Assembly: GCA_031367385.1 (NCBI GenBank)
Contig: JANLPS010000157.1
Span: 1-34,577, forward strand
DNA length: 34,577 nucleotides
From: Archangium sp.
Lineage (GTDB): Bacteria > Myxococcota > Myxococcia > Myxococcales > Myxococcaceae
Direction of reading: 5' to 3'
Shown in pieces: positions 11,567 through 34,577 of the stretch. A model generated the notes under the pieces. It searched no databases, was not told where the DNA came from, and worked only from the letters and a program-made list of their open reading frames with translations. Position 1 is the first letter of the stretch; each line of letters opens with the position of its first letter. Position numbers and translations under genes: made by a program.

Positions 11567-11922
11567 CACGGCGCTCGTCGTGCTGGCCGGCTGCGCGCAC
11601 GTGCCGGACTTCGATGGGACGTATTTCGTTGGCGGGCGTTTGAGCGCATCGCCGCCAGAAGTGCGCTGAGCCGTGCAGGTGCCGTGTTTCGCAAGCAGGG
11701 CTCCGTGGGGCCTCGATGCGGGAGTTCGCACGGCGGCTCGAGCAGCACACATGACCGTACACGCGCGCGCCGTGCTCGAGCGCATGGGGGCCGCCACTTC
11801 GGTGGTCGTCGTGCCTCAACCACGCGTTTCACCAAGCGGGGCGCAGCGGCCCGTGCGGTCTGCTGATCACTGCCCTTCTCACCTTGACCCGCCCCTGCAA
11901 GCGCCCGCAGAGTCAGCGATTC

Positions 11923-13545: not shown

Positions 13546-13549
13546 CCCC

Positions 13550-14899
13550 ATGCGAACGCGAATCTCACGGAGGTCAATGCTTCGCGGGGTGCTCGCCGCC
13601 GGCGCCACCGTCGCCCTGCCCCTGCCCCGCCTGGCTGGCATGCTCGATGGCAATGGGCTGGCCTATGCCGACGGGCAAAAGCTCCCGGTTCGGTTCGGCA
13701 CCTGGTTCTTCGGCAACGGCATCATCCCCTCTCGGTGGAACCCGAAGAACGTTGGCGTCGGCGCCGACTGGGCGTTGAGCGAAGCGCTCGCGCCGTTGCT
13801 CGCGGTCAAGCCCTGGCTCTCGGTGATCAGCGGCATGCAGAACAAGGTGCCCGGGCTGTACGCGCACAAGTCGTACCCGGCTGGTGCCCTGACCGGAGCC
13901 CAGGCGATGGCCGCAGGCGACGTGCAGTTGCCTTCGATCGATCAGCTGATCGCCAAGCTCAACCCGGCGACCGCTTTTCCCAGTGGGTTGCATGCGGGTC
14001 TGTGCAACACCACCGGCGCCGGAGCGCTCGATCTGTGCTGCTCGTTCAACGGCCCGAATCAACCCAACCCGCCCGACTACAGCCCGACGTCACTGTTCAG
14101 CAAGCTGACGCAATTCTCGACCAACACCCGTGCGACTGACCCGTCGTTGCTGCGTCGAAAGCGCATTCTCGATGCGGTGAACGAAGACGCGAAGGCGCTG
14201 CGCACGAGGCTGGGCGCCGAAGACAAGAGCCGCCTCGACCGTCACCTCACCGGCGTCGACGAGCTGCAGCAGCGGTTGGTGAGCCTGGCTGCTCCGCATG
14301 TGTGCGGTGACGTGACCGACCCGAAGGTGGCCTACCCCGACCGCGGCGACGACGGCGTCATCACCAAGGCCCGCAACCAGGCCTTCGCCGAGCTGCTGGT
14401 CTTCGCGATGTCATGCGACGTGACGCGGGTCTTCACGTACCTGTTCAGCTCGGCCGCGTGCCACGGCTCGTACGCCGACGCCGGGCTCGACAACGTGACC
14501 TTTCACGAAGACTACGGTCACCGCAAAAGCCCGCGTGGCAGCGAAATGGCCACCGAGGGGTTTCAACAAGGCGTCACCTACACGATGGCGCGGCTCGCCG
14601 AGCTGCTCGAGCGCATGAAGAACACGCCCGACGTGACCGGCACCCTGCTCGACAACTCGGCCATCTACATCACCTCATGCGTGGCCGATTCGATCAACCA
14701 CGGCAACACCGACTTCCCGCTCCTGCTCGCGGGCAAGGCCGGTGGCGCGTTCAAAGGCGACGTTCACGTTCGCGGCAACGACGACAGCGTCAGCCGGGTG
14801 CCCTTCACGGTGCTCAAGGCCTTGGGCGGCACCGCCACCAGCTTCGGCCTCGATGAGGGTCGCGTCGAGACCGGCGTGCCGGAGCTGCTGAAGGCGTGA
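13550..14899 (+). CDS. DUF1552 domain-containing protein
   Basis: Twin-arginine-like ISRRSMLRG..ALPLP.L, F.GNG, SIDQLIA, LGAEDKSRLDRHLTGVDELQQRL, AMSCDVTRV, GTLLDNS, H...FPLLLAGKAGG. This family is the usual partner of DUF1592. Confidence 0.88.
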   Translation: MRTRISRRSMLRGVLAAGATVALPLPRLAGMLDGNGLAYADGQKLPVRFGTWFFGNGIIPSRWNPKNVGVGADWALSEALAPLLAVKPWLSVISGMQNKVPGLYAHKSYPAGALTGAQAMAAGDVQLPSIDQLIAKLNPATAFPSGLHAGLCNTTGAGALDLCCSFNGPNQPNPPDYSPTSLFSKLTQFSTNTRATDPSLLRRKRILDAVNEDAKALRTRLGAEDKSRLDRHLTGVDELQQRLVSLAAPHVCGDVTDPKVAYPDRGDDGVITKARNQAFAELLVFAMSCDVTRVFTYLFSSAACHGSYADAGLDNVTFHEDYGHRKSPRGSEMATEGFQQGVTYTMARLAELLERMKNTPDVTGTLLDNSAIYITSCVADSINHGNTDFPLLLAGKAGGAFKGDVHVRGNDDSVSRVPFTVLKALGGTATSFGLDEGRVETGVPELLKA

Positions 14900-14957: not shown

Positions 14958-16424
14958 GTGCGGTGGCTGGCTCTCGTCTCACTTGCCCTGATCGGCAATC
15001 AATACACGGTTGGGTGCGAGGGGTGTGGCCCGTTCCCTCCGTACGTGGCGCCGGTGCCCGATGCGGGGCGCGCTGACGCCGGGGTTATGGGCACCAACGA
15101 TGCGAGCGTGTTGCTCGACTCCGGGCTCCCAGAGATCGATGCGGGAGACCTTGCAGACTCAGGCGTCACGCCGCTCGATGCGGGCTTGAGCTTCGATTCA
15201 GGCGCCCTCCTCGACGGGGGCCTTCCCTCCGACGCGGGGGTTCTCTTCGATGCGGGCACTGCCTTCGACGCAGGCACTCTCATCGATTCTGGCGTGCCCT
15301 TCGGCGACGCGGGCACGGGCTACGACGGCGGCCTCGGCTATGTCTGCACCGGAGGCCCGACCGTCTTCACCACCGGCATGGCAGCGCGGGTGGTCGTAGG
15401 GCAACCCGACTTCGTCTCGGCCCTGCCCAATGGCGGGCTGAGCCGCGTCAACGAAAGTGGCTTCGCGACGCCCTACGGAGTGGGGACGAGGGACGGAAAG
15501 CTGTTCATCTCAGACGGCGATAACAACAGGGTGCTGGTGTACGACACCATCCCCACGGCCGACGGCGCGTTGGCGGACCATGTGATCGGCCAGCCCGATT
15601 TTCAAGACGGCACGGCAGGGACAACGGCAACGAGGATGTCGTGCCCGCAAAATTTCGCCTTCGGGCCCGAGCACTTGATCGTCTCCGAGTTCTGCAACAG
15701 CCGGCTCAGCTTCTGGAGGCTCGATTCGATCGCCACCGGCATGGCGGCGAGCTTCGCGTATGGGCAACCCGACCTGGTCACCGGTACTGCGAACACCGGA
15801 GGTCTGAGCGCCACCTCGATCGCCAACTCAGCCTCTTCTCAAATCATCGGCAGTCGCTGGTTCGTCGCCGACAGCGTCAACAACCGGGTCTTGATCTTCA
15901 CCACGGTACCCGTCGCGCCCGGAGCGGTGCCCGATGCAGTCATCGGCCAGCCCGACTTCGTCAGCAACACGGGCACCAACGGCCTCAATGGCCTCGGGTT
16001 TCCGCTCGATGTGTCGAGCGACGGTGTGAAGATCGCGATTGCCGACGACAACAATGACCGAACGCTCGTCTACAACGCGGTGCCCAGCGATGCCGGCGTG
16101 TTCGCCGACGTGAAGCTGGGCGGTTTTGCCCGCCCACCCGACGGCACCAACCAAGACAGCCCGGTCGGCGTTCTCATCGCCGGCGGCCGCCTCTTCGTCG
16201 CAGACCGTCGCAACAACCGCATCTTGGTGTGGAACACGATACCCACCGCCACCGATACGCCAGCCGACGTGGTGCTCGGGCAAGTGAACTTCACCGAGCG
16301 GCTCAACAACCAGGGCAACGCGGCCCCCGATGCGACCGGGCTCAGCAACCCCCACTTCATGTTCTATGACGGCTGCCGGCTGTTCGTCACCGACATCAGC
16401 AACAACCGGGTTTTGATTTACTAA
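14958..16424 (+). CDS. Secreted/lipoprotein NHL-repeat beta-propeller protein with Asp-Gly-rich linker
   Basis: N-terminal signal with Cys. Repeated (V/I)GQPDF and LF(V/I)(A/S)D..NNR(V/I)L(V/I)(Y/W/F) NHL blades. Confidence 0.85.
   Translation: MRWLALVSLALIGNQYTVGCEGCGPFPPYVAPVPDAGRADAGVMGTNDASVLLDSGLPEIDAGDLADSGVTPLDAGLSFDSGALLDGGLPSDAGVLFDAGTAFDAGTLIDSGVPFGDAGTGYDGGLGYVCTGGPTVFTTGMAARVVVGQPDFVSALPNGGLSRVNESGFATPYGVGTRDGKLFISDGDNNRVLVYDTIPTADGALADHVIGQPDFQDGTAGTTATRMSCPQNFAFGPEHLIVSEFCNSRLSFWRLDSIATGMAASFAYGQPDLVTGTANTGGLSATSIANSASSQIIGSRWFVADSVNNRVLIFTTVPVAPGAVPDAVIGQPDFVSNTGTNGLNGLGFPLDVSSDGVKIAIADDNNDRTLVYNAVPSDAGVFADVKLGGFARPPDGTNQDSPVGVLIAGGRLFVADRRNNRILVWNTIPTATDTPADVVLGQVNFTERLNNQGNAAPDATGLSNPHFMFYDGCRLFVTDISNNRVLIY
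15060..15332 (+). repeat. Low-complexity coding repeat: ~15 D-[A/S/G]-[G/S] motifs at ~6-aa spacing
   Basis: PDAGRADAG...DSG...DAG...DSG...DAG..FDSG..LDGG..SDAG..FDAG..FDAG..IDSG..GDAG..YDGG. Confidence 0.85.
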
Positions 16425-18898: not shown

Positions 18899-20089
18899 TT
18901 ACTTGCCCGCGTCGGGAGTCGACGGCGTGGCGTCGGGCCGGCGGGTGACCATCATGTGGCTGCGTTTCTCGGGGCTGCCATCGGGGTACCCGAAGCGCAT
19001 CGGCAACGAGCGGCGGGGCTGCGCGGCGAACTCTTTTCGCAGGTCTTCTTGGCTGGTCTCGGCGGTGTTCAAGAACGACTGGTGAAACGAGCCGTAGGTC
19101 TCCATCGTCAGCCCGGCCTTTTTCACGAACTTGGGCAAGAGCCCGGTGGAGTCTGAAAACATGAAGTCCAGGTGCGACGAGAGGTAGTCGCGAATCACCG
19201 AGAAATTCGAGTTCCACAGCAAGTAGCTGGCGGCCTTGGTCATCGCAGCGACGTGACCCTTCGCCTCGAGGTGCGCGAGCAAGCCCGGGTTCTTCTTGAA
19301 CCCGTCGTTCGACAGGTCAGCCGCGATGTGGCGGTGAATTCGGTGCGCCGCGGCGGGTTGCCCCATCGGCACGAATTGCACTTCGACGTTCGCGAAGGCA
19401 GGCGAGAAGTCGGGCGACTTCCACTCCTCTTTGAGCTTGCTGGCCTTGGTGCCCTCGAGCGCCTCGATCTCTGAGCGCGAGTAGTAGTGCAGCGCCCCAT
19501 CGGGCTCGATGCGAAAGAAGCGCACCGAGACCGGCTCCATCGAGTGCAACGCGAGGCCGATCAGGTGCATCGAGAGCTGCCCGGGGAGCTCACCGCGCTG
19601 AATCGACGACAAATTCACGCTCTTCGAGTCGTTCGAGAGCAGGGTGGTGTTGCTGGTCATCAGCAGCCCATTGAGGCTCGCCTTGAGCACCGCCGCATCT
19701 TTGACCAGCTTGAAGCGGCGCGGGTCGCCAGCCAGCTCGAGTGACATCGTAGTGATCACCTTCGCGTCGGGGAAGGAGTTGAGCGCCATCATCATGTCGC
19801 CGCCACCGAAGGGGTAGACGAGCTCAGCGGGCAGGCTCGGCGGGCGCAAAGCAGCGAGAAATTCTTTGCCGCCGGTGCCCCAGTGCTCGGTGAAGCGGGC
19901 CATGTGCGGCTTCTGGCGCTCGCAGTACCAGGCGACGGTCTTCGCATCGAGCCCCTCGGGCAGCGCGCCGCCCTGACAGGTCACGACGTTGAAGATCACT
20001 TTCACATCATCGATGAATTCAGCGGGTGCGGCGTCGGCTTCGGGGGCAGTCGCGCCGAGCAAGGAGGACAACACGAGGGCAGTGAGCAA
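18899..20089 (-). CDS. Conserved hypothetical secreted protein
   Basis: Long ORF with strong GC3 bias. Likely start TTG at 20089 giving signal peptide MLTALVLSSLLGA. Motifs VYPFGGGD, TKAASYLLW, SDSTG, PMRFGYPD. Confidence 0.75.
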   Translation of the reverse strand: MLTALVLSSLLGATAPEADAAPAEFIDDVKVIFNVVTCQGGALPEGLDAKTVAWYCERQKPHMARFTEHWGTGGKEFLAALRPPSLPAELVYPFGGGDMMMALNSFPDAKVITTMSLELAGDPRRFKLVKDAAVLKASLNGLLMTSNTTLLSNDSKSVNLSSIQRGELPGQLSMHLIGLALHSMEPVSVRFFRIEPDGALHYYSRSEIEALEGTKASKLKEEWKSPDFSPAFANVEVQFVPMGQPAAAHRIHRHIAADLSNDGFKKNPGLLAHLEAKGHVAAMTKAASYLLWNSNFSVIRDYLSSHLDFMFSDSTGLLPKFVKKAGLTMETYGSFHQSFLNTAETSQEDLRKEFAAQPRRSLPMRFGYPDGSPEKRSHMMVTRRPDATPSTPDAGK

Positions 20090-20203
20090 GGTGCCTCGAG
20101 TTCTAGCCCTAAACGCGTCACCGGTCGCACTTTTGCCGCAGGCCCACACCCACCCATCAAGACGCGCGACACCCGAGGCGCGTTGTTACACGATGCCGCC
20201 CTC

Positions 20204-23200
20204 ATGCTTCGTTCGATACGACTCGCCGCACTGGTGCTTCTGGCTGCCTGCTCCTCGATGCGCCCCACGTTGCGCGCGGCTCCCGCGGCTGACGAGCGGG
20301 CGTTGAGCGAGGCAGTCGAAGCGTTCTACCAAGCCTCGTCTGCGCCAGCGCTTCGGGCCGCGGTCGATGCAGCCGCGAAAATCGCTCCTGATTCTGCGCG
20401 CTTTCACGAAATCGCCGCCCGCCTGGCGTTGCTCGATGGCCATGACGGCGACGCGCTCGATCACCTGATGGCGGCGCTGCAAGACACCTTCGATGACGCA
20501 CCGGTGCTGCACCTGCACCAGCTGATGGCGCTCGATCAGGTCTACGCCGACCGCCAGGCCGTGCGTGAGCTGCTGCGGGTGCTGACCGAGCGTCACCCCA
20601 ACGGCGCGGTGCGAGCCGTCGCCGCGTACCACCTGGCCTCGCTGCTCAACGCCGAGAACCTGCTCGATGAGCGCAACGCGGTGATGGCGGCCGTACCAGG
20701 CCAGCTGCACTTCTCGATCGCCGGCACGTGGGACAATGACTCCGGCAAGGCCTTCGACGCTGAGCTCCCACCCGAAGTTCGGCCGGGGCTTGACCAGGTC
20801 TACGACGGCCGCGCGGGCCCGCTGCACTGGCGCCGTGACGCCCCGGTCGACCCCCGAGGCCGGCTCGATTTGAGCGCGCTGATGACGCCGAGCCGCTGGG
20901 CCGCCGCCTTCGCGCAGGCGCAGCTCGAGACCACCATCGCCGGGCCGCACGAGCTTCGGCTGATGTCGACCGACCCGGTCAAGGTGTGGGTCGACGGCAA
21001 GCTGGTCTTCACGGCCTCGCAGCTCGAGCGCTCGGTGTACGACCACCTGGTGATACCAATGCAGCTGGCGGCGGGGCACCACATGGTGTTGATCAAATCT
21101 GCGCACCGCGACAGCACCTGGTTTCTGACCGGGCGCTTGGTGGCCAGTGAGGCAGCGACGCAGAGCAACCCGACCGTCGATGCGCTGCTGCAGTGGTACG
21201 TGCGCGAGCTGCCCAAAGACTCCGCGCGCGCGGCGTCGTTGCTCACCCAGTGGTCGCACTTCGTCGCGGGCGGCACGTACCCCGTGAAGAGCGCCGATGC
21301 CGCGGTGAAGGCCTGGCCGCACAGCATCACCGCGCGGGTCAGCCAGGTCGACGCGCTGTGGTTCAACCAAGAACGCGGCCGCACCGCTGATCTGCTGCAG
21401 ACGCTCGACGCTGACGCCGGTGACGCGCTGCCCTTCGTTCGGCTTCGGCACATTCGCTTTCAGCAGCAACAGGGTCAGAAGCAGAAGGCCCGCGACCGGC
21501 TGCTGTCATTGACCAAGACGCACCCCACCCTGCGCGAGGCCTGGGAGCTGCTCGCCGAGACCTGGCGCACCGAAGGCTGGCTCGAAGACGAGCTGACCGC
21601 CGAGCTCGCCCTGCGAAAATCATTTGGCGCCACGCCTGAAGAAGACGGAGAGCGCGCGCGAACGCTGATTCGGCTGGGGCGAAGGGCCGAGGCCGTCGAG
21701 CTGTATGAGGCGGTGCTCGAGGTGTTGCCGCGCCACGCCGATACGCTGCGACGGGTGGCCGACCTGGCCGCCGAAGCGGGTGACCTCGAGGCCGCCGAGG
21801 GGTTTCTCGAAGACCGGCTCGAGTCATGGCCCACCGACTTCACCGCCTGGTTGCAATTGGCCGAGGTTCGACGCCGCATGGGGGCTCGCAAGAGCGCAGA
21901 GGTGGCATTGAGCAAGGCGATCGCGCTCTCACCCGACTCGGCGAGCCCGCAGCAAAAAGCTGGAGACCTCGCGTACGAAGCCGGAGACGTCCCCGCCGCG
22001 CTGACCTCGTGGCGACGCGCGTTGGACTTCAACCCCGAGAACGAGTCGCTCGCGAACCGGGTCGACTTTCTCTCGCCCGAGGCCCGCGGCCCGTGGATGG
22101 CCGACGTGCCCGACGAGGCGGCGATTGAAAAGGCAGTCAGCCAGCGCGCAAGCGTCACCCAGACGCCGGGGGCCGACGTGGCCTGGTTGCTCGACCACGA
22201 GGTGACGCTGCTCAACAGCGATGGCAGCACCAGCAACGTCATCACCGAGGTGGTGCACGCCTTCAACGCCCAGGGCCGCGACCGGGTGATGCGGCAGTCC
22301 ATTCCTCCCGGGCGGCTTCGGGTGATGGCGTCGTACGTGCTCGATGAGAAGGGCAACCGCACCGAAGCCGCCGGCGAGCGCGCGCGGCAGATCTTCTTTC
22401 GCGGCATGCAACCGGGCTCGACGCTGGTGCTGCAGTACCGCCTCGACACCCCACCGCAAGGCTACCTCTCGCGCTACCTGACCAAGAGTTGGACGTTTCA
22501 ATCGGTGTCGGAGCAGCGGCTCGAAGGGCGCTTCATCGTCTGGGCGCCACTGGGCGTGACGCTGCATGAAGAACGAGTCGGTCAGGTGAACCGGGCCCAA
22601 GAGAAACGGGGTGAGCAGCTCCGCTTCGCCTGGTCAGCGACCAACGTGCCGCCGCTGGTGGCCGAGCCGTCGATGCCGACGCCGCAAGAGCTCGCCGCGA
22701 ACATTCGAATCTCGACCGTGCCCGACTGGAAAACCTGGCTCTCGTGGGAGCAGGCCCTGCTCGACGGCGCCTTTCGCGACAGCCCCGAGCTCGACGCGCT
22801 GGCCAAGACGATGAACGAGGGCTCGCCCGATGAGACTGAGAAGCTGCGGCGCATTCACCAATTCGTGATGGAGGAGATTCGCTATCAGCAAGACTACGAG
22901 ACCTTCATCGCCGGGGTGAAGCCGCACGCGGCGCCGATGGTGCTCGAGCGCCGATACGGCGACTGCAAAGACAAGGCGGTGCTGTTCATTGAGCTCGCGA
23001 AGAAGCTGGGGCTCGACGCGCACTTCGCGCTGGTGCGAACCCGTGAGGGAGGCCCGGTGATGCTCGACGTGCCGATGCAGCAGTTCAATCACGCCATCGT
23101 GTACGTGCCGACGCAGAAGGGCGTCAAAGAGGCGCGCTTCTTCGACCCCACCGCCGAGCTGCTCGACCTCGACACCGTGCGCGGCGATGACGTGAGCACC

Positions 23201-23941
23201 AAGAGCCTGGTCTTCGACCCCAAGACCGGCGTGCACACCTGGCGCGACATCGAGATGCAGGCGCCTGAGTTCAACCGCGAGAACAGCACCCTGGCGCTGA
23301 CCGTCGACCCCGCGGGCGCGGCCAAGGGCACCCTGACCATCGAGGGCGTCGGCCGAGACGGCTCGTTGATTCGAAGGGTCGCTCGAAACACCGAGCTGCT
23401 CAACCAGGCGATGCAGCGAATGGCGACGTCGTTCTTGCCCAACGCGTCGACCAGCAACGCGAAGGCGCTCGAGGTGAAGTCACTGCGAACGCCCGCGTCG
23501 CTTTCGACCGACATCGAGGCTCGCACCTTCGCGCGAGCCGAGGGTGACACGCTGCGCATGCGAATACCCAGCGAGTGGAACCCGCGGTCGTTGTTCACGT
23601 TGGCGAGCCGGCGGCACCCGTTGGTGCTGGGGGCTCCGGCGCAGATGCAGACCCGGGTCTCGCTTCAGCTGCCGGCGGGCTTCGAAATCAAGAAGCTGCC
23701 GATGGCCTCGTCGGTCGAGCTGCCGTGCTTGTCACTCAAGCGTGACGTCACCCGCGATGGCGCAACGGTCACCAGCGTTCAGACCTTTCGCAACACCTGC
23801 GAGCGCATCAGCGCCACTGAATACGCCCAGTACCGTTCGCGGGTCGACGACATGGTGCGCATGCTCGAAGACGAGCTGGTGATTGCGCCGGTGGCTGGTA
23901 AGTCGCTTGCGAAGAAACCCGCAGCCCCTGTGAGCCGATAG
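20204..23941 (+). CDS. Lipoprotein with PA14/jelly-roll-like, TPR, DUF3857 and transglutaminase-like domains
   Basis: Lipobox LVLLAA-C, VKVWVDG jelly-roll, TPR helices, and VLERRYGDCKDKAVL / FNHAIVYV / FFDPT (Cys-His-Asp triad). Confidence 0.85.
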   Translation: MLRSIRLAALVLLAACSSMRPTLRAAPAADERALSEAVEAFYQASSAPALRAAVDAAAKIAPDSARFHEIAARLALLDGHDGDALDHLMAALQDTFDDAPVLHLHQLMALDQVYADRQAVRELLRVLTERHPNGAVRAVAAYHLASLLNAENLLDERNAVMAAVPGQLHFSIAGTWDNDSGKAFDAELPPEVRPGLDQVYDGRAGPLHWRRDAPVDPRGRLDLSALMTPSRWAAAFAQAQLETTIAGPHELRLMSTDPVKVWVDGKLVFTASQLERSVYDHLVIPMQLAAGHHMVLIKSAHRDSTWFLTGRLVASEAATQSNPTVDALLQWYVRELPKDSARAASLLTQWSHFVAGGTYPVKSADAAVKAWPHSITARVSQVDALWFNQERGRTADLLQTLDADAGDALPFVRLRHIRFQQQQGQKQKARDRLLSLTKTHPTLREAWELLAETWRTEGWLEDELTAELALRKSFGATPEEDGERARTLIRLGRRAEAVELYEAVLEVLPRHADTLRRVADLAAEAGDLEAAEGFLEDRLESWPTDFTAWLQLAEVRRRMGARKSAEVALSKAIALSPDSASPQQKAGDLAYEAGDVPAALTSWRRALDFNPENESLANRVDFLSPEARGPWMADVPDEAAIEKAVSQRASVTQTPGADVAWLLDHEVTLLNSDGSTSNVITEVVHAFNAQGRDRVMRQSIPPGRLRVMASYVLDEKGNRTEAAGERARQIFFRGMQPGSTLVLQYRLDTPPQGYLSRYLTKSWTFQSVSEQRLEGRFIVWAPLGVTLHEERVGQVNRAQEKRGEQLRFAWSATNVPPLVAEPSMPTPQELAANIRISTVPDWKTWLSWEQALLDGAFRDSPELDALAKTMNEGSPDETEKLRRIHQFVMEEIRYQQDYETFIAGVKPHAAPMVLERRYGDCKDKAVLFIELAKKLGLDAHFALVRTREGGPVMLDVPMQQFNHAIVYVPTQKGVKEARFFDPTAELLDLDTVRGDDVSTKSLVFDPKTGVHTWRDIEMQAPEFNRENSTLALTVDPAGAAKGTLTIEGVGRDGSLIRRVARNTELLNQAMQRMATSFLPNASTSNAKALEVKSLRTPASLSTDIEARTFARAEGDTLRMRIPSEWNPRSLFTLASRRHPLVLGAPAQMQTRVSLQLPAGFEIKKLPMASSVELPCLSLKRDVTRDGATVTSVQTFRNTCERISATEYAQYRSRVDDMVRMLEDELVIAPVAGKSLAKKPAAPVSR

Positions 23942-26567: not shown

Positions 26568-27260
26568 GTGAGCCGTCGGCGGCGGTGGCCGTGGGTGTTG
26601 TTGCTCGTGGTGATGGCCGTGCTGTGCGCCGCGACGTACCTGCGCTCGAGGCTCGCGTACGAAGTGCCCGCGGGCTTCAGCTCGATCAAGGCGCTCTCGG
26701 TGTACCAGCAGCCTGAGATGCTCGAGCGGGCGTGGGCGTTGCCGGTGGCGTCGAAGTACCCGAGGCCTCCGCTGTGGCAGTCGAACCCCTCGGCGTGCGG
26801 GCCGACCGCGGTGGCCAACGTGCTGCACTCGACGGGAGCGCTCGAGGCCACCGCTGACAGCGTCGCTGAATTCGGTGCCGGGTGTTTCAAGGGGGTGTGC
26901 TTCGGCGGGCTGACGCTCGAGCAGTTGGCGACGGCGACCCGAGGGGCGGCTCCGAAGTGGCAAGTGAGCACGCTGCACACGCTCACGCTCGAGCAATTTC
27001 GCGACGAGCTGCGGCAGGCGAATGCGCTCGAGCGCCGGTTGATCATCAACTTTCACCGGGGCCCTTTGTTCGGCACCGGAGGCGGGCACCACTCGCCCAT
27101 CGCGGGGTACCTCGAGGCCGATGATCTGGTCTTCGTGCTCGACGTGAACGAGCACTACCACCCATGGTTGGTGCCGGCGCCGCGGCTGTATGAGGCGATG
27201 CACACCGTCGACCCGTCGAGTGGCGAGCTGCGCGGGCTGTTGCGCATCGAGCTTCGGTAG
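26568..27260 (+). CDS. Phytochelatin synthase family (papain-like) protein with N-terminal membrane anchor
   Basis: Q.NPSACGPTAVANVL (Cys), GLTLEQLA, IINFHR..LFG.GGGHHSPIAGY (His), VLDVN (Asp), RGLLRI. Confidence 0.88.
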   Translation: MSRRRRWPWVLLLVVMAVLCAATYLRSRLAYEVPAGFSSIKALSVYQQPEMLERAWALPVASKYPRPPLWQSNPSACGPTAVANVLHSTGALEATADSVAEFGAGCFKGVCFGGLTLEQLATATRGAAPKWQVSTLHTLTLEQFRDELRQANALERRLIINFHRGPLFGTGGGHHSPIAGYLEADDLVFVLDVNEHYHPWLVPAPRLYEAMHTVDPSSGELRGLLRIELR

Positions 27261-27475: not shown

Positions 27476-27646
27476 CACGTTGCCGTTCGCGTCGACAGGG
27501 CGAACGTCGGGCAAGGCATTGAAGCTGCCGACGTCAGACCGGCCGCAGCTCGAGGGCTCCACCACCATGTTCGAGGCCCGCTCGGCGATGCCGTAGTCGA
27601 GCGAGGTTGCGGGCATCTTCATGAACTCGCGCTTGAGCACTGCCGG
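27476..27646 (-). pseudogene. Mannose-1-phosphate guanylyltransferase (ManC) internal fragment
   Basis: FMKMPATSLDYGIAERASNMVV...G(R)SDVGSFNALPDVRPVDANGNV matches ManC SIDYAVME...WSDVGSW..L...D..GNV. No N-terminal domain, and the conserved W is replaced by R. Confidence 0.75.
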
Positions 27647-27669
27647 GGCCCTGGCTTGGGAGCCGCGCG

Positions 27670-27926
27670 CCGAAGCCATCGCCTGACATCTTGGTCGCAA
27701 GCTCGAGCGTGGCGCGGTCTTGCGCTTCATCGGCGGCGCGAGCGCTTTCGATTGCCTAGGCCACGGAGCGTTCGGCTGCTTTGACGATCGCCTCCGTTTC
27801 GACCAGTGCGAGATAGGCCTTTTCAAACGCGTCACGCGCGGCACGGGTGCACTTCGAGGTCACAGCTGAAAGCGCTGCGTTGATGAGTCGGCCCAATGCC
27901 AACATCGAGAGGGTGTTCGTTGCCAC
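27670..27926 (-). pseudogene. Truncated helical hypothetical gene interrupted by an in-frame TAG
   Basis: Strong SD AAGGAGG (27933-27939, minus) 6 nt before GTG at 27926. Helical protein to TAG at 27756-27758, continuing in frame as AIESARAADEAQDRATLELATKMSGDGF. The 3' boundary is approximate. Confidence 0.45.
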
Positions 27927-28109
27927 GTGCTGCCTCCTTCGGTTGAGGAGTCGCCACAGCGCAGCCGACATGCCGAGCTCAATCAATTGTATTTATTCCG
28001 CTTCTCGAAAACGCACGGTCCACGAAGGAGAGCCATGAGGCCGCAGGCAGCCGATAAACCTTTGTTGCAGCGTTTCAGAAGATGCGACCGCGAGTCACCG
28101 CCTTGCGGG

Positions 28110-28263: not shown

Positions 28264-28839
28264 ATGGCCTTTTGGTTGACCCGTTGGTTCAGACCCGCCC
28301 GAGCGACCGCCTTGCCCGCGCCAATTGAAGACAGCGCGCTCGCAGACGAGCCGCCCGCCTGGGCTGCTGAGCTGCTCGACCTCACGAAAAAATCAGCCCG
28401 AGGCCAGGTGCGCTTGACGATGACCGTCGACGACCTCAAAGCCCAGGTCGAAGGGGGCTTCAGCTCGCTCGAAGCACAGGCGCAAGCACACTCTCTCGTC
28501 GCCGGAACCGCCGCGAACCCCCGATGGGACGACATGCTCGATGCGATGGACCTGCTCGAGACCGTCATTGTGAGCCCCGAGGCGCAGGCGACCCCAGCGC
28601 TGGCCTTGGGCCTTCGCGGAGTGCTCGCACGCCTAGGCTCGGTGCTCGAGCAGAACGCCTTGGAGCGGCGCGCGCCCAGAGGCAGCCTGCCTGACGGCCG
28701 GCTCTTTCGCGTGGTGGGCATTGAAATGGCCGACGATCTGCCCGAGGGCGTCATCTCACGCGTCGTGCGCGCAGCCGTGCTTCGGGGAGATCAGCTGATT
28801 CGCGAAGGTGAAGTGCTTACCAATCGGAGAATGACATGA
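28264..28839 (+). CDS. grpE: Divergent nucleotide exchange factor GrpE
   Basis: LLDAMDLLE-like helix, GLRGV..RL..VL.Q..LER, and beta domain G..PDGRLFRVV...PEGVISRVVR.....DQLIREGEV. ATGA overlap with hsp70. Start is uncertain. Confidence 0.75.
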   Translation: MAFWLTRWFRPARATALPAPIEDSALADEPPAWAAELLDLTKKSARGQVRLTMTVDDLKAQVEGGFSSLEAQAQAHSLVAGTAANPRWDDMLDAMDLLETVIVSPEAQATPALALGLRGVLARLGSVLEQNALERRAPRGSLPDGRLFRVVGIEMADDLPEGVISRVVRAAVLRGDQLIREGEVLTNRRMT

Positions 28840-30494
28840 GTCATACATTTGGCATTGACCTCGGTACGACCAATTCGGTGATTTCACAGTTGGTCAACGG
28901 GCGACCGCAGCCCATCGACATCGACGGTAGCCCCATTGTGCCTTCGGTGGTGTTGTTCGAAGGAGAGCGCGTCTGGGTTGGTCGCAAAGCCCGCAATCTC
29001 GAGCTTGAGCAGCCCGAGCGAACCATTCGGTCGGTCAAACGAAAAATGGGTCAGTCGCATTCGTACCAGGTAGGCGATCGCGTGCTGAGCCCTGAAGAGG
29101 TCTCGGGCGAGATTCTGCGTGCGCTCAAAGACGGTGCCGCGGCGGCGACAGGGCACGAGGTGACCGATGTCGTCATCACAGTGCCGGCCTATTTCGACGA
29201 CGCGCAGCGACGCTCGACGTTGCGGGCGGGTGAGCTCGCCGGCCTCAATGTGCTTCGGCTGCTCAACGAGCCAACCAGCGCGTCGCTGGTGTACGACCAA
29301 GTCGGAGCCGCCGCGCAGCCCGGAGTGCCCGAGATCGTGCTCATCTATGATTTGGGCGGTGGCACCTTCGACGTCTCTGTGCTCGAGGTCTTCGATTCTG
29401 TCAGAGAGGTTCGTGCCACAGCCGGCAACTCGGTGCTCGGCGGCGACGACTTCGATGAATTGCTGGTGCGGTTTTTTCTCGACGAGCTTCGGCGCACAGC
29501 TGGGGTCGACCCGCGCGAAGACGTTCGGGCGATGGCGCGCCTGCGACGGCTTGCAGAGGACACCAAGATTCGCTTGTCGACCGACACCTCGGTCATGGTC
29601 AAAGAAGAGTTCATCACCCGCAGCGGCGATGCCCCAGTTCACTTATTGGTCGAGGTGACCCGGCGTCAGTTCGAGTCGATGATTCGGCCACTGCTCGATT
29701 CGACCATCGCCTTGGTTACCCAAGTCATGGCCGATGCCAAGTTGGGCGACCAACCGCTCTCGAGAGTGTGTCTGGTCGGCGGGTCGACCCGCATTCCACT
29801 GGTGCGCTTGTTGCTTCAAGCGGCGCTCGCCATCGATGTTCACGACGAAATCGACGTTGATCTCGCCGTGGGCTTGGGCGCCTGCCTCCAAGCTGGCCTG
29901 CTCAAAGGAGCGTCCGTCGAACGAATTCTGGTCGACGTGGCTTCGCACAGCCTGGGCATGAAAGTGTTTGGCGAAGACGACGAAGCCCGGGCCGAGGTCG
30001 ACACGTTCGCCAAAGTGATTCACCGAAATACCGTATTGCCCGCGAGGCGAGCTGAGGAGTTCTATACGCTGGTCGACGACCAAGCCGCCCTTGAGGTCGA
30101 AGTGTTTCAGGGCGAAGCTTCACGCACCTCAGAGAATGCGCGCGTCGGCTCGTTCAAGTACCCGCTCGCACCCAGCCGCGAGGGCACCCCGGTTCGGGTC
30201 GAGTTCGCGTACGATCTCAATGGCGTCGTCAAGGTCACCGTTTGCCAGCGCGGTGGGGCTGAAAAGACGGTCTCGCTTTCGGTCGCCGATGCCGCTGCGG
30301 TGAACTCCAGCCTCACAAAAACAGGCACGGGCAGCCCAATCGCAAGAAAGGCATACCAGTTGCTCGGCCGGTTGACGGGCGACGTGCGAACCACGCTCGA
30401 GCGATTGCTGAGCGACTTCGAAGCGTGCCACAGCGGCGCCGAGGAGGCACTGCTCGACTTCTTTGTCGACCACGAGTCGTCAACCGAGAACTAG
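28836..30494 (+). CDS. Hsp70 family chaperone (specialised DnaK paralog, short C-terminal lid)
   Basis: GIDLGTTNS, TVPAYFDDAQR, LLNEPT, YDLGGGTFDVS, LGGDDFD, LVGGSTRIP, linker ILVDV, and SBD VFQGE / FAYDLNGVV. 552 aa. Confidence 0.95.
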   Translation: MSHTFGIDLGTTNSVISQLVNGRPQPIDIDGSPIVPSVVLFEGERVWVGRKARNLELEQPERTIRSVKRKMGQSHSYQVGDRVLSPEEVSGEILRALKDGAAAATGHEVTDVVITVPAYFDDAQRRSTLRAGELAGLNVLRLLNEPTSASLVYDQVGAAAQPGVPEIVLIYDLGGGTFDVSVLEVFDSVREVRATAGNSVLGGDDFDELLVRFFLDELRRTAGVDPREDVRAMARLRRLAEDTKIRLSTDTSVMVKEEFITRSGDAPVHLLVEVTRRQFESMIRPLLDSTIALVTQVMADAKLGDQPLSRVCLVGGSTRIPLVRLLLQAALAIDVHDEIDVDLAVGLGACLQAGLLKGASVERILVDVASHSLGMKVFGEDDEARAEVDTFAKVIHRNTVLPARRAEEFYTLVDDQAALEVEVFQGEASRTSENARVGSFKYPLAPSREGTPVRVEFAYDLNGVVKVTVCQRGGAEKTVSLSVADAAAVNSSLTKTGTGSPIARKAYQLLGRLTGDVRTTLERLLSDFEACHSGAEEALLDFFVDHESSTEN

Positions 30495-30497
30495 CGC

Positions 30498-32381
30498 ATG
30501 AGTGCTCTCGACGACGTCAGCAAAGGGCTTCGCAGAAATGACGCAGAGCTGGCCGTTTCGGCCTTGCTCAAGGTGGCATCGGCAGAGCGCGAGAGCGTTT
30601 TGCCAGCCGTCGGCGCGCTGTTTCGTCAGGCGGTGCTCGAGGTGCACCGTCGCGGTGAGTGGTCGAGAGGCGTCTTCTGGGCCGCGCGCGCCGAAAAAGA
30701 ACCGAGGCTGTACGGGCTTCCTGATTCTGACGACCACCGTGCAGTGCTGTGGGCATTGATGTGGGCGGCGGTGATCAGCCGCGAATTCGAGCGCGCCGCT
30801 CGGCTCTGGGCGCTCGTTCGCCCGCAGGTCGAAGCCAAGGCTCCCGCATTGGCTCTGGCTATTGAGGCCCACATTGCCTCGCGCGGTTCACCACCGCCCG
30901 CGCTGATCGCCGCGCTGAACGTGCCCGAGCCAGACCCGCGCCTGGGCCGCGAGCCGACTCAGAGTTCGAGCAAGCTCACCCTCCCGGCCCCGACGACGCT
31001 TGTGTCAGTCGAGTCGAGCGTGCTCGCAGCCTGCAGTGGTTTGCCGTGGGCGCAGTTCGCCGACACCGTTACCACCTGGGTGCGCACCGCGACCCCCGAG
31101 CTGGCCAGGACCATCGCGACGCTGGCCACTTCGCTTGCGGTGCGCGAGCTGCTGGTTCGCTTCTCAGAGGCGGCGAATTCGCAAAGAAGCGTGCCAGGGC
31201 TGCTGGTGGCCGAACTGATTCGTCAGGTCGGCGCTCAGGCCACGATGTCAGAAGATGTGCTGCTCGCGTTTCGATTGGTAGCCAGTGACGGCGCCCAGCA
31301 GCCCTTTGCGAATGAGCAGGCGGCTCGGCCGTTCTGTGCGCTTGCCTCTGCGACGGCAGCATACGAGCTCCACCGCCCCCTTGTCGTGCGCGCCCTCGAA
31401 AGTCGCTTGTTCGCGCCCGCGGCCGCCCGGTCGGGCCTGCGCTTGCTCGAGGGCCTGGCCACGAAAACGCTGCCGCCAGAACTCTTTGCGAAAGCCGTCG
31501 CGCTGATCTGCATGGAGCAACACGAATTCGTCCCTGAAGCGCCCGCCTGGTTACGCCAAGCGTGGGAGTTGCTCATGAAAGAGCCCACCGACTTTCAGCG
31601 ATGGATTTCGGCCCTGCCCGAGCGTGAGCGCGGCCCCACTCTCATGCGCTGTCTTGAAGCCCTGCCTTTGCAGTGTACCGAAGCCCTGGTTGAGGCCTTG
31701 TGGTCGAGCGCCGACAAGTCGCTCAGAACGCTGTTGGCTCGCATCGTCGCGACGCAAGCCGAAGCCATGGCAGACGACATCGATTTCGAAGACACGCAAC
31801 TGCCCAACGAGCTGCGCGGGCTCTACGAGCGGTTCATTGATGAACGGGGCTCGATGCCCGCGCTCGCTGCCAAGCTGCTCGAGCGGCAGCAGGGTCGCAT
31901 GCTTGGGTACCATCGAGCCTTTCTTGAGGTAGCGCTCAGCGAAGCGAAGACATTGGGTGAAGCGAGCCGATATCTCGAGCAGCATTTGGCCGTGTCGAAC
32001 GATGTGGTCTCACGCATTGATGCGATGGCTGAGGCTGACAATGCCGGTTGGGGTTCACTGAGTGAGCGCATCGTTCGGCAGTTGGTCGATGAATTGGCGG
32101 CCAGCCCCGAGCGTCTTGGCGAAGCGGTTGAGGCCGCAGACAGGTGTGGTGCACCAGATGCACGGCTTCGGCCAATGGCCGAGGCGCTGCTCGCCGCTTC
32201 GACACGAATGTCAGCAACGCCGAGCTCGGCTCTGCAAAAAACGCTTGGTCGAATTCGACGGTTCGTGAAAAAGCCGACGAAGAAGCCGGGCGCCAAAAAG
32301 AACGGGGCCAAGCCCCGCAAACCCAAGAAAGCTTCTGAGCCACCCAACCCGTCGGGTGGTCAGAACGACCTCCCTTTTTGA
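30498..32381 (+). CDS. Hypothetical alpha-helical (TPR/solenoid-like) protein, 627 aa
   Basis: Long ORF 3 bp after hsp70. Ala/Leu/Glu/Arg-rich helices, a Pro-rich linker, and a Lys-rich tail ending in QNDLPF. No catalytic motif recognised. Confidence 0.8.
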   Translation: MSALDDVSKGLRRNDAELAVSALLKVASAERESVLPAVGALFRQAVLEVHRRGEWSRGVFWAARAEKEPRLYGLPDSDDHRAVLWALMWAAVISREFERAARLWALVRPQVEAKAPALALAIEAHIASRGSPPPALIAALNVPEPDPRLGREPTQSSSKLTLPAPTTLVSVESSVLAACSGLPWAQFADTVTTWVRTATPELARTIATLATSLAVRELLVRFSEAANSQRSVPGLLVAELIRQVGAQATMSEDVLLAFRLVASDGAQQPFANEQAARPFCALASATAAYELHRPLVVRALESRLFAPAAARSGLRLLEGLATKTLPPELFAKAVALICMEQHEFVPEAPAWLRQAWELLMKEPTDFQRWISALPERERGPTLMRCLEALPLQCTEALVEALWSSADKSLRTLLARIVATQAEAMADDIDFEDTQLPNELRGLYERFIDERGSMPALAAKLLERQQGRMLGYHRAFLEVALSEAKTLGEASRYLEQHLAVSNDVVSRIDAMAEADNAGWGSLSERIVRQLVDELAASPERLGEAVEAADRCGAPDARLRPMAEALLAASTRMSATPSSALQKTLGRIRRFVKKPTKKPGAKKNGAKPRKPKKASEPPNPSGGQNDLPF

Positions 32382-32395
32382 TGCGAGCGTGAACC

Positions 32396-32758
32396 ATGGC
32401 GTCACCCTTTGCTGTTCTCGCTCTGTCACCGACACTCGATCGAGCCGCGGTGAAGCGAGCCTATTTTGCGAAATTGGTGCTTCACCCGCCGCATACCGAT
32501 GCAGATGCTTTTCGAAAGCTGCGTGATGCCTACGAGGCGCTCACCGCGCCGGGTGGCCTCGAGCGAGCCTACGCGGTCGCGCCGATCGACATCTGGCTGA
32601 GGCTCGAACAGGCTCGAGCTCGCTTCGACGTCGCTCTGGCAGAGGCGAGTCGCCATGCGCATCAGAGCGATGACGCGAGGCGACAGGTGAAGCGGTTTGT
32701 CGAGGTGGTGTCGCAAATGAGCTGCGACGAAGCGGTGAGCACCTTCGGCGGTGTCTGA
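32396..32758 (+). CDS. Small J-domain (DnaJ class III-like) protein with non-canonical HPPH motif
   Basis: PFAVLAL....DRAAVKRAYF....HPPHTDADAFRKLRDAYEAL matches J-domain helices I-III. Confidence 0.85.
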   Translation: MASPFAVLALSPTLDRAAVKRAYFAKLVLHPPHTDADAFRKLRDAYEALTAPGGLERAYAVAPIDIWLRLEQARARFDVALAEASRHAHQSDDARRQVKRFVEVVSQMSCDEAVSTFGGV

Positions 32759-32996
32759 ACGCGGGGCGCGCGCGTTGCGTGGGCGCGCCTGATCTGATCA
32801 CTCAACCCGCCCGTAGAGCTTTCACTCATCAACAAACCGCTGCGCTGAGGTAGACGCCGTCAGTGGCCACCAGTGGTCTCAAAGAACATTTGCCGACCCA
32901 CAGGTCGCCTCCGCTCGGCCTCGCCTCGCTCCGGCGCCGACCGACCGACCGACGACGCGAAACTCAGATCACTCACTCAGCCTCTGATCTGCGCCC

Positions 32997-33048
32997 GGTC
33001 CACTCCTCACGAGCAAAGGTGGGTCACTTCTCGCGAGCGCTGAAGTCA
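32997..33048. repeat. IS21-type terminal region: two 18-bp direct repeats at 24-bp period
   Basis: GGTCCACTCCTCACGAGC (32997-33014) vs GGGTCACTTCTCGCGAGC (33021-33038), 14/18 identical, followed by GCTGAAGTCA. Adjacent to istA/istB remnants. Confidence 0.55.
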
Positions 33049-33222
33049 GCGGCCCTATTGCCAGCCCCGACCTCGGTCATCAGCCCAGTCGCGATGCGCA
33101 CCTCACGCCAATAAACCGCCGCGTTGATGGCCGATGACTGCTCTGCAAAACACCGACCCGGCAGCCAGTACGCTCGCCACGAGCCATCGAGCCCGCAACG
33201 ATCTCGCTCAGCAACAGCCAGT

Positions 33223-34029
33223 CGCTACTACGGCTTCACCTTCGTCGCGCACGAGAAGGGCGACGCCAACCGCTCTGCCCACGTCGAGCGTGGCTTCGAC
33301 CACATCGAGCGCACTTCATACCCGGTCGAGCCTTCACCGACTTCGCGCACCTCAATCTCGAGGCGCGCGCATGGTGCGAGCGCGCCAACCGCAAACAGCG
33401 CCGCGCGCTGCACTGCGGGCCAGTGCGCTCGAATTCTTCGCGAAGAGCAATCCCATTCGGTGCCGCGCCCGGCATGGGTGCCTGAAGTGTATTTGTTGCA
33501 CCGCCGCGTGATGGAGATCGAAGGCTTCGTACACGTCGATGGCCAGATTTTCTCGGTGCCCTGGCGGCGCATCGGTCGCCAGCTCAAGGTGCGCGAGACG
33601 AAGGACAAGGTCGTCATCTACGACGGGCCGCGTCTGGTCGCCCAGCACCCGCGCATCTTCTGTTTCGGCAAGAAGCGCCTGACAGAACCTGCGCACCGCC
33701 CACCGAAAGGCGTGGGAGCAAGGCATGCAAAACTGCCCACACCCGAGGAGGCCGAGCTGTTGCGCGCCGAAGCGCCGCTGCCTGACTTCGCTAAAGAGGT
33801 GAAGGTGCGCGCGTCGTCGCGCTGGCCCACGGTGCTGCGACGACTGGCGCAGATGCATCGCGACTACCCGCGCAAACCCTTCCTCGCCGCGGTGACGTCA
33901 GCGTCACACTACGGCCTCTTCGACCTCGACCGGCTGGAGCGAATGGTGCTCCGGAACATCGCCACCGAGTACTTCGTCGTGCCGGCCGACCGAGGGACTC
34001 CCGACGACGAGGAACCAAATGAAGGATGA
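33223..34029 (+). pseudogene. istA: IS21 family transposase IstA, 5'-truncated and frameshifted
   Basis: YGF.FVAHEKGDANRSAHVER, then (shifted frame) FIPGRAFTDFAHLNLEARAWCERAN, then WVPEVY..H.R....GFVHVDG..FSVP..IGRQLKVRE...A.H, YGLFDLDRLERMVL. HTH and first DDE residues are absent. Confidence 0.88.
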
Positions 34030-34577
34030 ACTTGAGCAGCTTCTCAGAAATCTTCATCTCCATCGCATCGCCGAGCTCTTCGACGAAGAATCGAAGCGCA
34101 GCGACAAACAGAAAAAGCACTTACGACGAATTCTGCACGCGCCAACTTCGCGCGCAGTGGCAGCGAAACCAGGAGACCTCGCTCGCCTACAGAATTCAGC
34201 AGGCGCGCATGCCAGAGCAGTGGAGCCTCGAAACGTTTCCCTTCAAACAGCAGAAGGGCGTCGACCAACGGCAGATTCGAACCTTTGCCGCGCTCGACTT
34301 CATTCCGAAGTCGGAGAACATCGTCTCCATGGGCGGCACCGGCGTCGGTAAGACGGGTCTCGCCTCGGGTCTACTGCTCAAGGCGCTTCAGAACGGGCAC
34401 CGCGGCGTCTTCATGCGCGCCCAAGACCTCTTCGACGAGATGTACGCCTCGCTGGCTGATCGCTCGACACGCAAGCTGCTCAACCGCTTGGTCAGCGTCG
34501 ACGTGCTCGTCATCGATGAGATGGGCTACCTCAACCTGAAGGCCGAGCAGACGAACATCTTCTTCAAGCTGATGGAG
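34019..34577 (+). pseudogene. istB: IS21 family helper ATPase IstB, frameshifted, partial at window end
   Basis: MKDELEQLLRNLHL..., frameshift near the A-run at 34112-34116, then ...WSLETFPF.QQ.GV...LDFI..SENIV..GGTGVGKT (Walker A)...VLVIDEMGYL (Walker B). Confidence 0.9.

Follow-up and report, generated by a model that had tools for sequence, protein, structure and literature searches.

Bacterial Hsp70 chaperones include housekeeping sets and dedicated ones that stand beside a fixed partner. HscC proteins are 550–580 amino acids (aa) long and are marked by a deletion at DnaK residues 76–101, a short D211 loop, an insertion in loop L1,2 and a helix B deletion, and Escherichia coli HscC gives ultraviolet resistance by an unexplained mechanism (PMC8215388; PMC numbers here and below stand for parts of the papers cited). 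DnaK, DnaJ and GrpE disassemble the lambda O–P–DnaB complex and initiator dimers (PMC8215388). Among changes to the HPD motif of J domains, only HPE is described as tolerated, and other deviations are called enigmatic (2026 review, PMC13254874). Here we describe a four-gene cassette from Archangium sp. (GenBank assembly GCA_031367385.1, contig JANLPS010000157.1, positions 1 to 34,577 of the forward strand, the whole stretch analysed, hereafter the window) that encodes a GrpE, an Hsp70, a large helical protein of the DUF6109 family and a small J protein. Our leading reading, which we hold tentatively, is that a private HscC-lineage Hsp70 cycle is targeted by DUF6109 to clamp-loaded DNA and remodels complexes there. 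The clamp-binding-type tail of DUF6109 and the HscC-lineage placement of the Hsp70 are new beyond the original prediction, which was made from the letters of the window alone.

Four genes in a conserved and mobile unit

The cassette genes, and the parts of DUF6109 discussed below, are as follows.

28264..28839, + strand: GrpE-like nucleotide exchange factor, 191 aa (PF01025, 31.4 bits against a cut-off of 25.8)
28836..30494, + strand: HscC-lineage Hsp70, 552 aa (Pfam HSP70, 401 bits; residue map, AlphaFold2 model and trees)
30498..32381, + strand: 627-aa DUF6109 protein, a solenoid made of helices only and lacking a catalytic signature (PF19604, 256 bits)
30498..30902, + strand: N-terminal TPR-like domain, DUF6109 residues 1–135 (VIA-align Z 8.4–9.2)
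32277..32354, + strand: Lys/Pro-rich disordered linker, DUF6109 residues 594–619 (predicted local distance difference test score, pLDDT, <50)
32361..32378, + strand: terminal QNDLPF, DUF6109 residues 622–627 (hexamer-type clamp motif with a non-canonical position 2; resembles the SSB C terminus)
32396..32758, + strand: small J protein, 120 aa (PF00226 DnaJ, 21.5 bits, below the cut-off of 27.8)

The four genes are intact and tightly coupled, as the original prediction had stated: the open reading frame coordinates give an ATGA overlap at the grpE–hsp70 junction followed by gaps of 3 bp and 14 bp, and all four frames lie on the + strand without interruption. The ATG start of the 191-aa GrpE is backed by homologues. 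In a public DNA run, which may be the source sample, a 5,837-bp contig matches 27131–32967 with zero differences. Scanning the cassette for promoters found none, and terminator-like sites numbered 10 against a shuffle mean of 5. Readthrough of the hsp70 stop codon into DUF6109 was considered and rejected: the two frames share a phase in the window and at many loci of the Archangium type, whereas L047, L066 and L067 have them out of phase (L numbers denote other loci, and C numbers contigs of the host genome).

DUF6109 occurs in 22 of 401 genomes of the phylum, and a profile of the Hsp70 C terminus (E values up to 1e-40) finds the same 22. A neighbourhood search for grpE–hsp70–X–J synteny, the check suggested with the original prediction, found the third gene fixed in position. 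The four-gene order is kept in 20 of 21 fetched regions, the remaining one being a 3.7-kb contig, and in 25 of 28 loci from a GTDB scan, the other 3 being cut by contig ends; the GTDB loci overlap in part with the genomes of the 21 regions. Their titles name Archangium, Hyalangium, Vitiosangium, Anaeromyxobacter, Polyangia, Sandaracinus, Enhygromyxa and Nannocystaceae, among others, and grpE is gene one in all complete loci. A metagenome search with a J-protein profile returned 39 loci, 33 of them of the cassette type; DUF6109 stands directly upstream of the J gene in 26 of the 33, and the other 7 loci begin less than 300 bases from J. The family is diverse, with 179 DUF6109 clusters at 50% identity, and cassette homologues in the fetched regions share with the window copy 61–65% identity for Hsp70, 43–52% for J, 39–49% for GrpE and 30–34% for DUF6109.

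Flanking genes vary even inside one genus, and no fifth gene is conserved. Presence is patchy: across five well-sampled genera, DUF6109 was found in 0 of 32, 0 of 21, 5 of 10, 8 of 12 and 3 of 7 genomes. The G+C content at third codon positions (GC3) places the four genes among the lowest 0–2.7% of 4,552 host genes, and cassette GC3 is lower than flank GC3 in 25 of 33 other loci. Mobility, which the original prediction had proposed, is supported by these changing flanks, the patchy presence and the low GC3. Among ten close copies, the ratio of nonsynonymous to synonymous substitution rates (dN/dS) is 0.29 for GrpE, 0.22 for Hsp70, 0.42 for DUF6109 (regional maximum 0.58) and 0.29 for J; it stays below 1 in every region, showing purifying selection. 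The four genes are one unit, and they constitute a real, conserved and mobile system.

The cassette has no bounding repeats, and one same-genus genome (87% complete) gave no DUF6109 match and no readable empty site. A 33045-to-26710 joint in contigs was considered as evidence of excision and rejected, as this joint matches a second locus on C106. Among single loci, an IS5-type insertion at L061 (9660–10760) splits DUF6109 and leaves grpE, hsp70 and J intact, and at L097 Hsp70, DUF6109 and J are all frameshifted, through decay or assembly error. L096, from a record titled as a Klebsiella pneumoniae metagenome-assembled genome, carries a myxobacterial-type cassette; a wrong label or a mixed bin is possible.

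An HscC-related Hsp70 with a shortened lid and its own GrpE

Mapped on E. coli DnaK, HscA and HscC, the cassette Hsp70 has ATPase residues D8, T11–N13, K70, E171, D194 and G196–T199 all identical to DnaK, and these are invariant in 11 homologues. The region of DnaK 76–101 and the D211 loop are deleted, loop L1,2 carries an insertion of about 9 aa, and the alignment indicates that lid helices A and B are mostly lost; correspondingly, the AlphaFold2 (AF2) model has only three short C-terminal helices beyond the β-sandwich. The GrpE-signature loop is kept. Because the mapped catalytic residues all match those of DnaK, the protein looks, by sequence, like an active and catalytically intact relative of HscC.

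The cassette Hsp70 shares 33% identity with E. coli DnaK, 32% with HscC and 37% with HscA, and scores under the NCBIfam equivalog cut-offs for DnaK and HscA (423.8 of 648 and 413 of 822.55 bits). In a 37-row tree, the cassette Hsp70s form one clade (Shimodaira–Hasegawa-like approximate likelihood-ratio test, SH-aLRT, 100) whose sister is a group of cyanobacterial plasmid copies (95), together on the HscC side (98). E. coli HscC lies on the same side of a branch with SH-aLRT 98–100, itself as a long branch whose exact relation is unsure. An approximately unbiased (AU) test on a second, 22-row tree that omits 15 of the 37 rows rejected a single clade with DnaK (p = 0.00056); both trees are quick searches. 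The AU result answers the phylogenetic check against DnaK that the original prediction had named. Pfam finds 21 HSP70 matches in the 7.97-Mb host genome, of which 16 are strong, DnaK- and HscA-like copies included, and the cassette GrpE is the third of this genome, the other two being on C77 and C451; M. xanthus is described as having only two GrpEs in the part of PMC11019930 cited here. With host DnaKs and two further GrpEs present, and grouping with DnaK rejected, the proposal of a private, non-housekeeping Hsp70 machine is supported. The host encodes a second HscC-side Hsp70 (573 aa, C286:9208–10926), which may pair with a non-HPD J protein on C245.

All five of the HscC sequence traits listed above are found in the cassette Hsp70. 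Its lid deletion, however, is much larger than that of HscC, and whereas HscC is without GrpE signature and GrpE partner, the cassette Hsp70 keeps the signature loop and comes with its own grpE. The neighbours of HscC are ybeR/ybeU and Sel1; the cassette has DUF6109 as partner instead. It resembles a dedicated Hsp70 set and is related to HscC, but falls outside HscC on its GrpE and its J motif. Like HscA–HscB–IscU, it places a private Hsp70 and J beside a fixed partner and has remodelled substrate-binding loops, but it lies on a different branch, scores below the HscA cut-off, has no isc genes and includes a GrpE. A neighbourhood with Hsp70, GrpE and DnaJ/TPR proteins also occurs in the GAP1-N2 DO-GTPase conflict systems, in the part of the description cited here (Kaur et al. 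2020, PMC7159879), but the cassette is not accompanied by a GTPase, FNIII or tubulin gene, as far as the scanned neighbours (220 of 291 called) show.

A J protein with PPH in place of HPD

The cassette GrpE combines a family-specific N-terminal helix, MFxWLRRLF, with a C-terminal half alignable to E. coli GrpE. In the J protein, HPPH (32483–32494) aligns with YHPD of DnaJ, putting PPH in place of HPD. HPPH is found in 101 of 120 J homologues, with 5 failing the pattern used; HPD within the first 60 residues occurs in 1 of the 120 and HPE in none. This retention, beside an intact Hsp70 wherever the locus is visible, bears on the enigmatic loss of HPD. The J domain resembles those of DjlB and DjlC in its short loop and non-HPD motif, with 29–31% identity, but DjlB/C carry a J domain with HPE inside a protein of 475–483 aa, whereas the cassette J is a free 120-aa protein whose C-terminal half is helical and family-specific. 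That the J gene is kept in a fixed place beside an intact Hsp70 suggests that J and Hsp70 are a co-evolved pair. Elsewhere in the host, a 754-aa non-HPD J protein with FPPE is encoded at C245:922–3183.

DUF6109 is a helical solenoid with a disordered basic end

The third gene product had been called an unknown large helical protein. Its helical nature stands, as AF2 predicts an all-helical solenoid (pLDDT 84, predicted template modelling score 0.58) that becomes disordered from residue 594; the protein is not unknown, as it belongs to a named Pfam family, PF19604 (DUF6109). The near-invariant columns R13, L26, W85, G130, P165, R259 and P349, like the conserved residues generally, lie in the solenoid body and not in the tail. 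No catalytic residue set is conserved among homologues, and structure searches with the whole 627-aa model, not single domains, returned generic TPR/HEAT/ARM repeats only (Foldseek TM ≤0.30; VIA-align best Z 10.9), and on these grounds a catalytic role was rejected. A search of the ESM Atlas gave a best score of 0.86, a lead only. Residues 1–135 resemble the TPR domains of the Hsp70/Hsp90 co-chaperones FKBP38, Cpr7, Cns1 and FKBP52 with Z below the chance level of helical repeats; this predicted domain is a possible chaperone-docking end, again as a lead only.

One homologue is named 'DUF6109 family natural product biosynthesis protein' by NCBI. In two Archangium genomes (L053/L077 and L048/L078) the cassette adjoins polyketide synthase (PKS) and P450 genes. 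These neighbours are a likely source of the label, no confirmation that it stems from a biosynthetic cluster record having been found, and the cassette reading corrects the label.

Clamp-type motifs at the DUF6109 terminus

The published β-clamp motif is Q[aliphatic]x[LM]x?[FL] (PMC11139829). DUF6109 homologues end in K/R-rich tails, the K+R fraction of the last 50 residues being 0.25 against 0.12 in host proteins, and often close with QLDLF, QLELPL, QLGLPF or QGELF. We counted motifs in 100 proteins of at least 580 aa among 151 retrieved, dropping 51 fragments; a first strict pattern had been picked after the tails were seen, and the counts rest on the published pattern instead. Of the 100 DUF6109 homologues, 24 carry it within their final 30 residues. 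By comparison, it is found in 24 of 3,121 host proteins and 11 of 1,626 internal windows, shuffling gives 0.4 on average and at most 2, and the 31 GrpE and 41 Hsp70 tails contain none. An acidic [LI]PF end closes 8 of the 100 homologues and none of the 3,121 host proteins (≥300 aa), and either this end or a loose motif is found in 46 of 100 against 85 of 3,121. On a tree built from a tailless alignment the motif is spread across most clades, within which kin are not independent. Host proteins with a similar tail motif include some that we take, by sequence, to be Xth, RuvB and a radical-SAM repair protein.

The window tail, QNDLPF, is disordered and agrees with the motif at positions 1, 4 and 6, not 2. 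A complex model of DUF6109 residues 590–627 with host DnaN, encoded on C362, scored 0.62 (best control 0.00), a mark attained by 116 of 157 solved pairs and by 2 of 215 mismatched ones; at least 66% of contacts recur between runs, and partner pLDDT is 46–51. Modelled residues 620–627 contact DnaN 172, 174–177, 244–249 and 362–368, the known clamp peptide pocket (PMC11139829), so the DUF6109 tail is predicted to bind the DnaN pocket.

Sister cassettes with other scaffolds

The sister Hsp70 clade (41–45% identity; SH-aLRT 95 and 87) belongs to a cyanobacterial cassette whose TPR scaffold was found on five plasmids. The three inspected (Acaryochloris, Nostoc) read TPR (840 aa)–J (98 aa, FPAH)–GrpE–Hsp70, at L068:4526–9746, L069:4206–10208 and L070, the last with broken TPR and Hsp70 genes. 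Like the myxobacterial cassette, this one has a small non-HPD J, its own GrpE and a large basic-tailed helical protein, but its gene order is different, it has no Q-type motif, and hhalign and hmmsearch detect no homology between the 840-aa scaffold and DUF6109. For this scaffold, 303 homologues were found. Its C terminus consists of an acidic stretch, a basic stretch and a conserved GFQELF-type motif; in 83 of 115 sequences the last letters are GF followed by at most 4 residues.

At two metagenome loci (L139:2852–6390 and L140:2148–5832), the protein that follows GrpE and Hsp70 joins a J domain, with HTPD/HSPD for YHPD, to TPR repeats and, at its C terminus, to CPCGSGKKxKxCC, a motif that we take to be of SEC-C type. 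Such a J-domain/TPR fusion fits an adaptor role for DUF6109. No published account of the cassette, or of its cyanobacterial sister, was found in the literature searched, which covered few subscription papers.

Proposed function and alternatives

The reading of the cassette as a private Hsp70 cycle at clamp-loaded DNA is built on its anatomy, invariant co-occurrence, intact ATPase residues, shortened lid and motif enrichment, all of which are observed. In the scheme that follows, every functional step of which is inferred or predicted, the basic linker and terminal motif would anchor DUF6109 on the clamps of forks or repair sites. The J protein would bind DUF6109 and trigger only the cassette Hsp70, the two having perhaps changed together (PPH and the shortened D211 loop); the lid-poor Hsp70 would hold a short site briefly, and the private GrpE would reset it. 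The result would be ATP-driven release or disassembly of DUF6109 or of DUF6109-held cargo, as DnaK/DnaJ/GrpE act on lambda O–P–DnaB, and the likely benefit would be an accessory response to replication or DNA-damage stress. The action of DnaK–DnaJ–GrpE on lambda O–P–DnaB, P1 RepA and mini-F RepE is likewise a full three-part cycle (PMC8215388), but there housekeeping chaperones act on foreign targets, whereas the cassette is private and its partner, lacking an initiator domain, bears a tail of the clamp type. A broader proposal, possible but more doubtful, is that the cassette is the myxobacterial branch of a widespread undescribed class of replisome-directed Hsp70 machines, in which a clamp-docked helical scaffold brings in a private Hsp70 that, once set off by an HPD-replaced J domain, strips or resets clamp-bound complexes.

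Several observations weigh against the clamp-directed scheme. Loss of HPD normally abolishes J-domain stimulation (PMC13254874). QNDLPF departs from the published motif at position 2 and resembles the tail of SSB (host SSB: GGDDIPF), and the model pass may reflect likeness, clamp-peptide complexes being among those solved, and speaks for fit, not binding. Even by the loose pattern, 54 of 101 proteins are motif-free in the last 30 residues. Archangium-type copies are mostly motif-free (the published pattern fits 2 of 36 distinct locus tails), and because these motif-poor copies are still under purifying selection, clamp docking cannot be essential everywhere. The Q-type motif is found in 0 of 115 cyanobacterial sister scaffolds, and the 220 of 291 called neighbours scanned with Pfam show no replication or repair gene that is kept from locus to locus.

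About half of the homologues lack a clear motif, the cyanobacterial sister ends in its different GFQELF-type sequence and the conserved residues lie in the solenoid body, all of which would suit a set specialized in folding or assembly, with DUF6109 or a solenoid-bound target as its client, the tail an optional localization signal and the core job unrelated to DNA. We consider this rather unlikely, as a 30-fold motif enrichment across clades below 50% identity needs selection. A little less probable still is that DUF6109 inhibits growth by blocking the clamp, in the manner of SocB and RipA, being held off by the chaperones until stress or phage infection and then arresting replication. A clamp-pocket motif is the expected mode of such a toxin, since suppressors of SocB and RipA map to that pocket (PMC12795458), the same pocket that is the predicted target of DUF6109; moreover, DUF6109 is the fastest-changing gene (30–34% identity, dN/dS 0.42), the cassette is patchy and mobile, and one genome has an IS5-broken DUF6109 with intact chaperones, with no clear reverse case seen. 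DUF6109 has no visible sequence or fold link to SocB or RipA, though, and the cassette has three chaperones where an antitoxin would be. The dN/dS values below 1 in every region indicate purifying selection, many intact copies are motif-free, and the original suggestion of a toxin held by its own chaperones is so far unsupported. The anti-phage role put forward beside it fares similarly. None of the four cassette proteins has a PADLOC match at E up to 0.1. Among 119 near neighbours at 32 loci, 13 proteins matched PADLOC, with specific systems at L050 (PDC-M41, HamB), L067 (AbiE) and L081 (PDC-S01), a WYL protein at L052 and otherwise generic domains; defence-type neighbours thus stand at 3–4 of 32 loci, a figure without a matched background, and the neighbours with Pfam assignments are mostly metabolic, transport and regulatory genes with some PKS and nonribosomal peptide synthetase (NRPS) genes. 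Carriage by phage or prophage was rejected, with no relative among 94 candidate stretches in viral contigs, and Hsp70 matches in a phage collection reach at most 38.5% identity.

The resemblance of the tail to SSB raises a further explanation, that in the window lineage it mimics the SSB C terminus and captures SSB-interacting repair or restart proteins for the Hsp70. The acidic [LI]PF ends counted above (8 of 100 homologues against 0 of 3,121 host proteins) favour it, as do their presence in only SSB and the window DUF6109 among 6,255 called host proteins and the scoring of 6 of 7 proteins of the window clade as this type. We nevertheless judge it improbable: the family grades continuously from QLxLPF to QxDLPF with Gln kept in the closest relatives, and the modelled tail fits the clamp pocket in hexamer register. 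Least probable is that the cassette serves as a back-up general DnaK system or a helper in natural-product biosynthesis. The lid is mostly lost, identity to E. coli DnaK is 33% and the AU test rejects grouping with DnaK; myxobacterial Hsp70s outside PRK00290 are reported, in the part of PMC8265645 cited here, to have failed to complement E. coli dnaK. The homologue name and the PKS/NRPS genes flanking at least three loci (L048, L053 and L055) speak for biosynthesis, but flanks vary by locus and are mostly without biosynthetic genes.

If the clamp-directed Hsp70 cycle is correct, the literature searched holds no earlier case of such a cycle having a dedicated connection to the bacterial sliding clamp. 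With four small soluble proteins, the cassette makes it testable whether HPD-less J domains are selected and functional, and what role HscC-lineage Hsp70s have.

Flanks of the cassette and other genes of the window

The original prediction placed the cassette between gene debris and a dead IS21 element, which the flanking features confirm.

27477..27947, − strand: gene debris outside the system, made up of pieces of a C301 gene and of a host family present in multiple copies (host-genome blastn and blastp)
32863..34577, + strand: IS21 remnant outside the system, with an insertion sequence (IS) end, a partial istA and a frameshifted istB (Pfam/NCBIfam)

The IS21 remnant has a 94.5% match to an IS end on host contig C475, and shows a one-base difference at 34112 from higher-depth copies. 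Upstream, a phytochelatin-synthase-like gene (PF05023) lies at 26568–27260; C106 (768–1515) carries a second copy, about 90% identical, of the 3′ part of this gene and of the DNA downstream of it, behind the same IS21-type end sequence. Farther away, at 11884–14899, a myxobacterial DUF1592/PSD gene precedes a DUF1552 (HXXSHH) gene, with an NHL-repeat gene next at 14958–16424, and 19883–23941 is a 1,352-aa open reading frame with TPR, DUF3857 and transglutaminase-like domains that has purE–purK directly downstream.

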